DNA from: a phage
NCBI GenBank assembly: GCA_011939005.1
Contig: GCA_011939005.1_4858.1
Length of the DNA stretch: 64,000 nt
Reading direction: 5' to 3' (one strand)
The position numbers and the translations under genes are program-made. Every line of letters starts with the position of its first letter. Position 1 is the first letter of the stretch. Shown piece by piece: positions 43,231 through 44,589 of the stretch. The notes beneath the pieces are model-generated. The model was not told the DNA's origin. It searched no databases and saw only the letters and a list, made by a program, of their open reading frames with translations.

Positions 43231-44589
43231 CCTCCCTAACTTTCACTAGGGCACAGACCATACCTTAGCCATGAGCTTTCGCTTTTAGGCTCCTCCCCAC
43301 TTCGGTGCTATTCTAAGCACCTACGAGCATTTCAGCTCCGGTCGTTGAACGTTCCTCTTACGAGGCTTCGCTGCTGATTACCCATTGTTAAAACCCTTAG
43401 CAGTATTGTTTAGCATAGGTCATCTCATTACTTGTTTCCGACTTTCGTCTCCACATGGGCAAATGAGCTTTAGGGGTTCCCAGCAATTCAGGGAGATACA
43501 CATCAGAGGTTTCCCGTCTGATGGGGCAAGGCTATTCTGCTGTTAAATATTGAACTTCAAATTGTTTGTACTTTCCGGTTTGTGAGACTGCTTTGGCCAC
43601 AGTGTTTCTTTTCACACCAATCGCGTTTGAAAACTCTTGTAAAGAATTCCAAATGGTTTTGATGTTAGTGGTCGTATCAGTCACACGCACCATCGACGGT
43701 ACACGTTTTGGCATTTGTGATTGTGGTCTGGGTTTGCGGAGATCGATCATGTCAGTTATGGCAACATCGATATCCACCATGTACCACGCCTCATATCCAA
43801 ACTTAGTCAAATCGACGGAACCGCCGTTGAGATGGGAATAGATGAGGTGTGGTTTTATACCCACGTATTCGGCTGCTGCCGGTACAGACGAGAACAGGAA
43901 ATATGGTTCCTTACCAACTTTTCTGATGACCAGTCCTTTATTACCTGGTCCTGAGTTCTTACCAATAGAATTCTTGGTGAGAATCCAGTCGTCTTCCGGT
44001 ACCTTGACTTCAAACACATCATTTAGCGTGTATTGACGATTAAGCCCACGTGCGATCGAGCTTGAAACCAAGTGCCGATTAACGCCGATATACTCAGCCG
44101 CCTTAGTCATGCTACGGAACTGAACTATATCGCCGGTCTCGAGATTTCTGACATCGACAATAATGTTGTCAGTTCTTAGACCAGTATCGAAAGCATGATT
44201 AACATTTTCCTTTCGATAACACCACTCAAGGTTTACCACAGATGGATTACTCTTAACACCATCACGATGGTTAACCTCGTCACCACATTTATCCAGGAAC
44301 ACAGTCGCAACAATTCGATGTAAATGGGTTTCGCCTTTACAACCGCGCACTCCCAGGTATCCACTTTTGAGAATGAAGACTGGTAGCGGCGTGACCATAC
44401 CTTTTACTTTACAGTCGCCCAATGCATCAACAAAGAGATCACGATAGACTGGGTGTCTGTAATACCCCTTAAAAACATACGAGGGCTCTAAATCATCGCG
44501 TAGTTTCCTACTCAACTTTTCAATAATCACAATTTATTCCCTATTACCAGTCACCGACTAAGAATAAGGAATAGCAGAATAACACTTTT
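43231..44589 (-). mobile_element. putative group I intron (phage IA-like) carrying an HNH homing endonuclease ORF; boundaries approximate
   Basis: Splits a beta-prime-like coding sequence; ~300 nt non-coding RNA after the endonuclease ORF contains GUUCAACGACC (R-like) and UAUGGUCUGUGC (S-like) elements whose GACC/GGUC can pair as P7; candidate 5' exon ends in U and intron ends in G. Confidence 0.55.
43532..44530 (-). CDS. HNH homing endonuclease with NUMOD/IENR-type DNA-binding repeats
   Basis: HLHRIVA...[28 protein letters not shown] is an HNH motif; three helix-turn-helix-like repeats [36 protein letters not shown]. Confidence 0.8.
   Translation of the reverse strand: [332 protein letters not shown]

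Follow-up and report, generated by a model that had tools for sequence, protein, structure and literature searches.

The stretch of DNA examined here (64,000 nucleotides (nt) of phage sequence, GenBank assembly GCA_011939005.1, contig GCA_011939005.1_4858.1; hereafter the window) matched genomes of Seoulvirus, the SPN3US-like jumbo phages, with Proteus phage 7 and Salmonella phage SaP7 aligning at 99.0% identity over the full length of positions 42300-46000. In this region the gene for the beta' N-terminal subunit of the non-virion RNA polymerase (RNAP) is interrupted by 1404 nt that contain an open reading frame (ORF) for an HNH-type endonuclease. We interpret the insertion, with a probability of roughly 0.88, as a mobile self-splicing group I intron carrying an HNH homing endonuclease. 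Mobile introns of this kind are already known; what is new is the occurrence of one, unannotated, in Seoulvirus, and a literature search found no publication describing a Seoulvirus intron.

Host gene, splice boundaries and ribozyme core

The original prediction held that the endonuclease ORF was embedded in the RNAP gene, and the flanking sequence bore this out: two ORFs on the minus strand, 44551-45957 and 42958-43230, are halves of one beta'-like gene, the upstream one terminating in ...RVIKMANGKSVILLFLILSR and a stop codon and the downstream one containing DFDGDQ. All positions given are those of the window, and the exons, intron parts and endonuclease features described below lie on its minus strand. 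Exon 1 (44590-45957), a homologue of SPN3US gp23 and phiKZ gp55, ends in ATG GCT AAC GGT (M A N G), and exon 2 (42958-43185) starts with GAT TTT GAT GGC GAC CAG (DFDGDQ, the Mg-binding aspartate triad of beta'). Exon 1 matched PHROG 2987 ('RNA polymerase beta subunit') with an E value of 4e-155 and was collinear with SPN3US_0023 up to 44591/44590, from which point the alignment was broken as far as 43185. When 45957-44590 was joined in silico to 43185-42958, the resulting protein was identical to SPN3US_0023 (gp23) at 531 of 531 residues; the spliced window junction reads GCTAACGGT|GATTTT and the SPN3US allele GCAAATGGA|GATTTC, and the predicted junction-spanning peptide of the spliced beta' subunit is ...VIKMANGDFDGDQFQVR.... 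The best-matching solved structure for the spliced protein was chain A of PDB 7ogp ('PHIKZ055 | PHIKZ056.1'; E = 5e-39), followed by bacterial beta' subunits, and on the strength of these matches the host gene was assigned to the N-terminal beta' subunit of the non-virion RNAP. Pfam gave no match for exon 1, for exon 2 or for the 617-amino-acid (aa) ORF upstream, and the family was thus assigned through PHROGs and the PDB. A scan of 42900-46100 for sigma-70 promoters and terminators gave nothing exceeding shuffled expectation, as would be expected of a phage that uses its own polymerases.

The complete intron extends from A44589 to G43186 (43186-44589), as established from the gap relative to intron-less SPN3US, the junction table, Rfam and covariation. 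Its splice boundaries are unambiguous: exon 1 ends in a U that is paired with G in P1, and the last base of the intron is G43186. The intron interrupts the universally conserved NADFDGD motif (NGDFDGD in the window) between the G of ...MANG and the first D of DFDGD; in the phiKZ gp55/gp56.1 chain of PDB 7ogp, APN-ADFDGDQ is contiguous.

The RNA between the ORF and exon 2 has the structure of a group I ribozyme. Rfam model RF00028 matched 43234-43562, directly 3' of the HNH ORF (E = 4.9e-10), and the core (43186-43524) comprises P2, P3, the P4-P6 domain, P7 (a pseudoknot), two extra hairpins between P7 and P3' (P7.1/P7.2-like), P8, P9, P9.1, P9.2 and the terminal G. Two hairpins between P7 and P3' are the subgroup IA arrangement of Michel and Westhof, and by this analogy the architecture of the window intron may be called subgroup IA-like. 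Conservation of the structure was assessed in an alignment of ten introns, namely those of the window, the ORF-less Seoulvirus type (EC001 and SPLA5c), three metagenomic jumbo-phage contigs located through the HNH protein (P0002, P0004 and P0006), Raoultella phage VB_ZK_P1, Klebsiella phage phiKp_32, Vibrio phage 2 TSL-2019 and phiKZ. RNAalifold returned 83 pairs, and compensatory changes were present in 48. After manual addition of the P7 pseudoknot, standard pairs filled 94.1% of cells, versus 35-43% when the partners were slid by 1-3 columns, and none of 500 shuffles matched the observed covariation values on any measure. An IMG/VR pattern scan for the junction of the intron 3' end with exon 2 returned three contigs only, and hence no large extra sample for covariation.

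The two ends of the intron would be brought together by P1. Its 5' strand (44588-44592; exon GGU plus intron AA) pairs with the internal guide sequence UUGCC at 43525-43529, U44590 contributing the U.G wobble of the splice site. P1 is prolonged by an extension of 9 bp, in which UAUUCUGCU (44573-44581) pairs with AGCAGAAUA (43533-43541), so that the extension 3' strand and the guide sequence together occupy 43525-43541. The extension closes the ORF loop: the whole ORF sits between the two P1 strands, in the terminal loop of the extended P1 (L1), and its last three codons and stop belong to the extension helix itself. The duplex energy of the extension was -17.8 kcal/mol, a value that 3 of 300 shuffles attained. 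A corresponding helix with a sequence of its own is found in each relative that carries an ORF, and for three of these relatives no shuffle of 300 was as good. In the ORF-less EC001 intron P1 is simply GGU|UC-GAAAA-GAGCC. P1 also co-varies with the exon (GGU|UC with GAGCC in EC001, GCU|UC with GAGGC in the metagenomic locus L005, GAU|AG with CUGUC in the Vibrio phage, and also GCU|UA with UAGGC). The U.G wobble is retained and the terminal G is common in all ten aligned introns, while the guide tracks the end of the exon (GG/CC, GC/GC, GA/UC). We propose that upon folding of the pre-mRNA, P1 (GGU|AA with UUGCC) and its 9-bp extension would join the intron ends across the approximately 1-kb ORF, and that guanosine-initiated splicing would then remove 1404 nt and yield a message for the intact 531-aa beta' subunit.

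The intron-encoded endonuclease and its start-site hairpin

The ORF at 43532-44530 is uninterrupted and runs from a GTG start to a TAG stop, encoding 332 aa. Its product combines an HNH nuclease of the I-HmuI type with three NUMOD1 modules for DNA binding. The window ORF matched PHROG 59 ('HNH endonuclease') with an E value of 3.4e-29, and a sequence search of the PDB gave I-HmuI (PDB 1u3e) as the best solved relative (E = 4e-4, residues 54-118). Among PDB structures, the only one to match the fold of an AlphaFold2 model built on ten homologues (mean pLDDT 81) significantly was I-HmuI (Foldseek E = 3e-7, probability 1.00). The HNH catalytic motif, which had been recognised from the sequence alone in the original prediction and is upheld by these results, occupies residues 86-113 (VNH88RDG...N100L...N109VNH112A; 44192-44275); it aligns with VVDH75KDG...N...N96 of I-HmuI, and residues N87, H88, N100, N109 and H112 are invariant across the ten homologues, which are 28-64% identical to the window protein.

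The three helix-turn-helix-like repeats that had been noticed C-terminal to this motif were likewise recovered, as three stretches matching Pfam NUMOD1 (55.1 bits, cut-off 22.8) and, in the AlphaFold2 model, as three strand-strand-helix-helix modules that follow the nuclease and align with each other. Module 1 comprises residues 125-161 (44048-44158; model strands 125-129 and 135-138, helices 141-148 and 152-161) and contains the best Pfam stretch (129-156). Modules 2 (residues 200-234, 43829-43933; strands 200-204 and 210-213, helices 216-223 and 227-234) and 3 (residues 280-318, 43577-43693; strands 280-285 and 291-294, helices 297-304 and 308-318) are defined by the model together with the repeat alignment. 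All three are kept in homologues down to 28% identity, and their presence implies that the protein recognises a long, asymmetric site within conserved coding sequence. A tblastn search of the window found no paralogue of the HNH protein there.

The GTG start is supported by the homologues, which begin at the aligned position (MEICKLSRKLR...). It is preceded by a hairpin (44535-44573; minimum free energy fold -17.2 kcal/mol) whose 3' strand, AAUAGGGAAUA, contains a Shine-Dalgarno (SD)-like AGGGA 7 nt upstream of the GTG, and the apical part of the same hairpin also holds the UGA (44551-44553) that terminates the exon-1 reading frame. The anti-SD/SD stem (UUCCUUAU/AUAAGGAA) is also found in loci L005, L007 and L009 despite an otherwise different L1. 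By analogy with I-TevI of T4, the hairpin probably limits endonuclease translation: the enzyme would be made from its own GTG, with its ribosome-binding site usually buried in this conserved structure.

In GenBank records MT679221, OM456492, MN445185, MT799840 and OR413585 (loci L003, L018, L002, L016 and L017, respectively) the intron is unannotated throughout, and the beta' gene appears as one truncated coding sequence (CDS) or as two 'subunit' CDSs. The same records, those of Proteus phage 7 and SaP7 among them, give the HNH ORF as a 'hypothetical protein' that starts at a downstream ATG and has 286-288 aa versus the 332 aa described here. The records of Proteus phage 7, SaP7, EC001, JN03 and SPLA5c list a truncated hypothetical protein and two RNAP 'subunits' in place of what would be one spliced gene and an endonuclease.

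Distribution, mobility and alternative explanations

The original prediction had allowed for either intron homing or a free-standing endonuclease that had split the gene into two cistrons, and had called for a comparison of related phages. That comparison showed the insertion to be far from universal. Among Seoulvirus genomes 98-99% identical to one another, the site is occupied by an intron with the ORF, occupied by a divergent ORF-less intron, or empty. In the phage collection, 2 records have the full insertion, 6 (EC001, Lh1B, JN03, 1252, SPLA3 and SPLA5c) have a 356-nt ORF-less intron and so are without approximately 1.05 kb, and about 25, including SPN3US, have no intron and are without approximately 1.4 kb. 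Intron homing is therefore the option favoured by the data, given that an RF00028 core adjoins the ORF, in silico splicing is exact and the element is optional. In addition, SPFM1 (LR535901) appears to hold the same intron and ORF, with a core 99% identical and the HNH gene broken up by frameshifts; the alignments of several SPFM records fall into 33-40 short segments, which points to assemblies rich in indels and not to true pseudogenes.

The two Seoulvirus intron types differ far more than the exons around them, the cores being 72% identical and the flanking exons 99% identical. An initial figure of 93% identity between the two types was discarded because that alignment had included exon 2; the cores are 72-78% identical. 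The window core is nearest to that of L005 (80.6%), and the EC001 type is nearest to L007 (77%). These comparisons point to two separate acquisitions of the ORF-bearing and ORF-less introns. When the window was compared with Proteus phage 7, 5 of 1404 nt differed in the intron (99.6% identity) and 32 of 2254 nt in the flanks (98.6%; Fisher P = 0.001), so that the intron is approximately 4-fold less diverged than its flanks, and to judge from these counts it is probably younger than the flanks and recently spread.

Empty and occupied sites also differ in the exon sequence next to the insertion point. In a sample of 11 SPN3US-species genomes, the last three codons of exon 1 were GCT AAC GGT in all six intron-bearing alleles and GCA AAT GGA at all five empty sites; the changes are synonymous, they lie at -1, -4 and -7, and their association with intron status is perfect. 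Polymorphisms at -16, +6, +12 and +33 were reshuffled among the site types. Differences between the window and SPN3US were clustered at the site, with six positions from -16 to +12 and the next ones at -109 and +177 (Poisson P = 1.7e-6). More distant intron-less relatives (STsAS, pEa_SNUABM_29 and Asesino) carry AAC GGT, and for this reason the haplotype of the empty SPN3US sites appears to be the derived state. Its A at -1 would eliminate the U.G pair at the splice site; the -4 and -7 changes fall outside P1. Taken as a sequence pattern, the haplotype is consistent with a short co-conversion tract, with a target that resists cleavage, or with the two together. The corresponding scheme for mobility is that in a mixed infection the enzyme would bind conserved coding sequence in an allele that lacks the intron and nick that allele near the insertion site, and that recombinational repair from the intron-bearing genome would copy the intron together with a few flanking bases (homing), possibly excluding markers of the competitor. 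If the phage forms a phage nucleus, the endonuclease would need to be imported into it.

Several observations weigh against a mobile self-splicing intron with an active HNH enzyme. The profile check called for in the original prediction succeeded for NUMOD1 but failed for HNH: Pfam HNH_3 scored 20.0 bits on the window ORF, below its cut-off of 24.8, so that the HNH assignment rests on the PHROG match and on the PDB sequence and fold evidence. The window core scored 47.0 bits on RF00028, 3 bits short of the gathering score of 50; same-site introns in relatives scored 56.8-69.4 bits, over the gathering score, and the phiKZ intron 75.6 bits. The low score is attributable to GGUAUGGUC in the window at the place where relatives keep the conserved GAUAUAGUC, two changes that lie in P7 and in J8/7. 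The P7 change is matched on the opposite strand (GACUA to GACCG; U-A to C-G, columns 234/348, specific to the window) and is a compensated change rather than decay. The A-to-G change in J8/7 is not accounted for in this way. Furthermore, the association at -1, -4 and -7 comes from 11 related genomes that are not phylogenetically independent, and for the phiKZ introns a long-read transcriptome gave no evidence of splicing under the conditions used (PMC10914365), a reservation that extends to every prediction of this type.

The alternative that fares best is an intron that splices but whose endonuclease is no longer an active homing enzyme, having become a decaying or domesticated passenger (e.g., a maturase, or an enzyme without a target) that is inherited only vertically. 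All five same-species intron-less genomes are changed at the site, which could mean that no cleavable targets are left; among same-locus homologues the exons are about as diverged as the endonuclease gene (58-65% versus 62-68% nt identity), a pattern compatible with long vertical co-descent; and the ORF-less introns show that loss of the ORF is possible. Against this, three independent isolates have retained the window ORF undamaged, differing by just 1-2 amino-acid changes, the catalytic H and N residues and all three NUMOD1 modules have been kept across homologues as distant as 28% identity, the intron is less diverged than its flanks between isolates, and two intron lineages within 99%-identical exons require horizontal movement. 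We therefore regard a mere passenger as improbable.

Much less tenable is the proposal that a free-standing HNH gene split beta' into two independently translated cistrons, with no splicing and the polymerase assembling from fragments. RNAP subunits of jumbo phages are naturally split into several polypeptides (PMC7598289), two 'beta subunit' CDSs are called in the GenBank records of EC001, SaP7 and SPLA5c, an ORF with a GTG start at 43230 continues into exon 2, and the phiKZ long-read data, as noted, do not show splicing. Yet a break between two cistrons would fall inside NADFDGD, 3 nt from the phiKZ gp55/gp56.1 join that is a contiguous chain in the solved structure; the gap is occupied by a covarying group I ribozyme with the correct U and G boundaries; the 356-nt ORF-less RNA element exists at the same site without any endonuclease; no ribosome-binding or SD sequence precedes the GTG at 43230; and excision restores the SPN3US protein exactly. 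On these grounds the two-cistron option of the original prediction was rejected. An intein or other in-frame protein-level element, conceivable in that homing endonucleases also live in inteins and inteins have been reported in jumbo phages (PMC13282480), was rejected on reading frames: the exon-1 frame meets a stop 12 codons into the insertion and the HNH ORF has its own start 59 nt past the exon boundary, quite apart from the lack of any Hint/intein domain match in Pfam and the approximately 340 nt of non-coding structured RNA after the ORF.

Related elements, neighbouring genes and significance

The 21-nt stretch coding for NADFDGD looks like an insertion hot spot. In jumbo-phage beta' genes it is broken at at least four positions: N|A (phiKZ), A/G|D (Seoulvirus, its metagenomic relatives and the Klebsiella/Raoultella phages), D|F (Vibrio phage 2 TSL-2019) and G|D. 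At the last of these, in Raoultella phage VB_ZK_P1 (L010, 3859-4185) and Klebsiella phage phiKp_32 (L011), the first intron is followed by a 12-nt mini-exon, GATTTTGACGGT (DFDG), and then by a second, 315-nt intervening sequence past DFDG| and exon 3 (GATACC...); a related element lies past DFDG| in Aeromonas phage CF8 (L023, approximately 2416-2680). The second intervening sequence (L010, 3871-4185) is preceded by U, has G as its last base and shows strong structure (z = -3.8), and neither that of VB_ZK_P1 nor the CF8 element had an Rfam group I match; it may be a group I subtype missed by RF00028, with GUGCGG/CCGCAC as a putative P3 and GCGUA/UACGC as a putative P7. The first-intron cores of VB_ZK_P1 and phiKp_32 (3494-3858) are 99.7% identical, and a 339-aa HNH-type ORF is present in L1 of phiKp_32 only, where its loop is closed by a 12-bp helix (AAGAAGUGAGAG/CUCUCACUUCUU); gain or loss of the ORF thus seems not to depend on the ribozyme.

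The closest counterpart in gene context is the phiKZ gp55/gp56/gp56.1 locus, whose introns were predicted by Mesyanzhinov et al. (2002), as cited in PMC10914365. The host gene is the same, and so is the order (a gene in the shell-protein position, beta' exon 1, HNH ORF, core and short exon 2); in both, a NUMOD-type HNH ORF lies in the P1 loop, an Rfam group I match lies directly 3' of it (the 75.6 bits given above for phiKZ), and the break falls within the NADFDGD coding stretch. The predicted phiKZ insertion point is, however, 3 nt upstream (N|ADFDGD versus NG|DFDGD), in agreement with the contiguous sequence of PDB 7ogp; the endonucleases are only ~29% identical and the aligned cores ~42%, and phiKZ lacks the SD-sequestering hairpin.

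PhiPA3 gp210 is the closest counterpart in proposed function. It is an intron-encoded HNH enzyme from a jumbo-phage RNAP gene that nicks the intron-less allele, and it is imported into the nucleus of its own phage and excluded from that of phiKZ (Birkholz et al. 2024; PMC11620839). Like the window protein, it is an I-HmuI-like HNH enzyme in a putative group I intron that breaks an aspartate-containing RNAP motif, with an intron-less sister phage, and single-nucleotide or silent changes beside the insertion site lower its cutting (PMC11620839), which parallels the SPN3US changes at -1, -4 and -7. The two elements differ in location, gp210 lying in the virion RNAP beta-type gene (gp211/209, phiKZ gp178) and the window element in the non-virion beta' gene, and in host (Pseudomonas for PhiPA3, Enterobacteria for the window element). 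For gp210 both nicking and the competitive effect have been shown experimentally; for the window element nicking is predicted from sequence.

In comparison with older systems, the window protein resembles I-HmuI in its HNH(N) motif and N-terminal beta-strand region, which align, and in having a NUMOD-type helix-turn-helix tail. I-HmuI and I-HmuII come from the DNA polymerase introns of Bacillus phages SPO1 and SP82, and I-BasI and I-TwoI are grouped with them; enzymes of this group are nickases, and I-HmuII favours the allele of the heterologous phage. As in that group, the window enzyme is encoded in a group I intron of an essential phage gene. Unlike the 332-aa window protein with its three NUMOD1 modules, I-HmuI has 174 aa and one C-terminal helix-turn-helix, from which the window protein would be expected to have the longer recognition site; the two are ~21% identical and belong to different host genes and phage lineages. 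The group I introns of T4 td, nrdB and sunY encode I-TevI to I-TevIII, and the I-TevI ribosome-binding site is sequestered in a hairpin. The window intron shares with these T4 introns a subgroup IA-like architecture with extra P7-P3' hairpins, a looped-out ORF, a sequestered ribosome-binding site and an optional distribution. It differs from them in that I-TevI and I-TevII are GIY-YIG enzymes, the T4 ORFs lie in loops other than L1, and their host genes serve nucleotide metabolism rather than RNA polymerase.

Directly upstream of the polymerase gene, the 617-aa ORF (46040-47893, minus strand) occupies the position of the phiKZ nuclear-shell protein (chimallin). The ORF itself had no match in Pfam, as stated, or in a PDB sequence search, and its homologue in L007 had a Pfam Chimallin match; the chimallin assignment consequently rests on synteny and the L007 match only. 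A 576-aa ORF (46274-48004, plus strand) overlapping it on the opposite strand is probably spurious. Elsewhere, a 232-aa ORF (38530-39228, minus strand) has a glycine/arginine/glutamine-rich low-complexity tail, GGGSFGRGGYGGGQGGGQRSGGGYQQQQQ, that recalls RGG-type nucleic-acid-binding tails. A whole-window Rfam scan (E <= 0.01) returned this intron and two tRNA matches, with no further introns. The tRNA matches are on the minus strand at 61313-61382 (37.7 bits) and 62737-62812; ARAGORN found the second only (tRNA-Trp, anticodon CCA), and the first could represent an unusual or degenerate tRNA.

With its three NUMOD1 modules the endonuclease is expected to recognise a long site, and it may prove useful as a sequence-specific nickase. 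The element may also vary among the SPN3US-like phages chosen for therapy or engineering, and such variation could skew the outcome of mixed infections or cocktails. It is conceivable, though we hold it to be somewhat doubtful, that the NADFDGD stretch is an arms-race hot spot in which the endonuclease acts chiefly as a weapon against co-infecting intron-less Seoulviruses, GCA AAT GGA is an evolved immunity allele that is both cleavage-resistant and splicing-incompatible, and the sequences at G|D represent a second class of intervening sequence. The use of an intron endonuclease as a weapon of competition has so far been shown only for PhiPA3 versus phiKZ. With three natural allelic states at 98-99% identity and empty sites that are marked by their sequence, the Seoulviruses would permit a direct test of intron endonucleases as phage-phage weapons and of escape by their targets.

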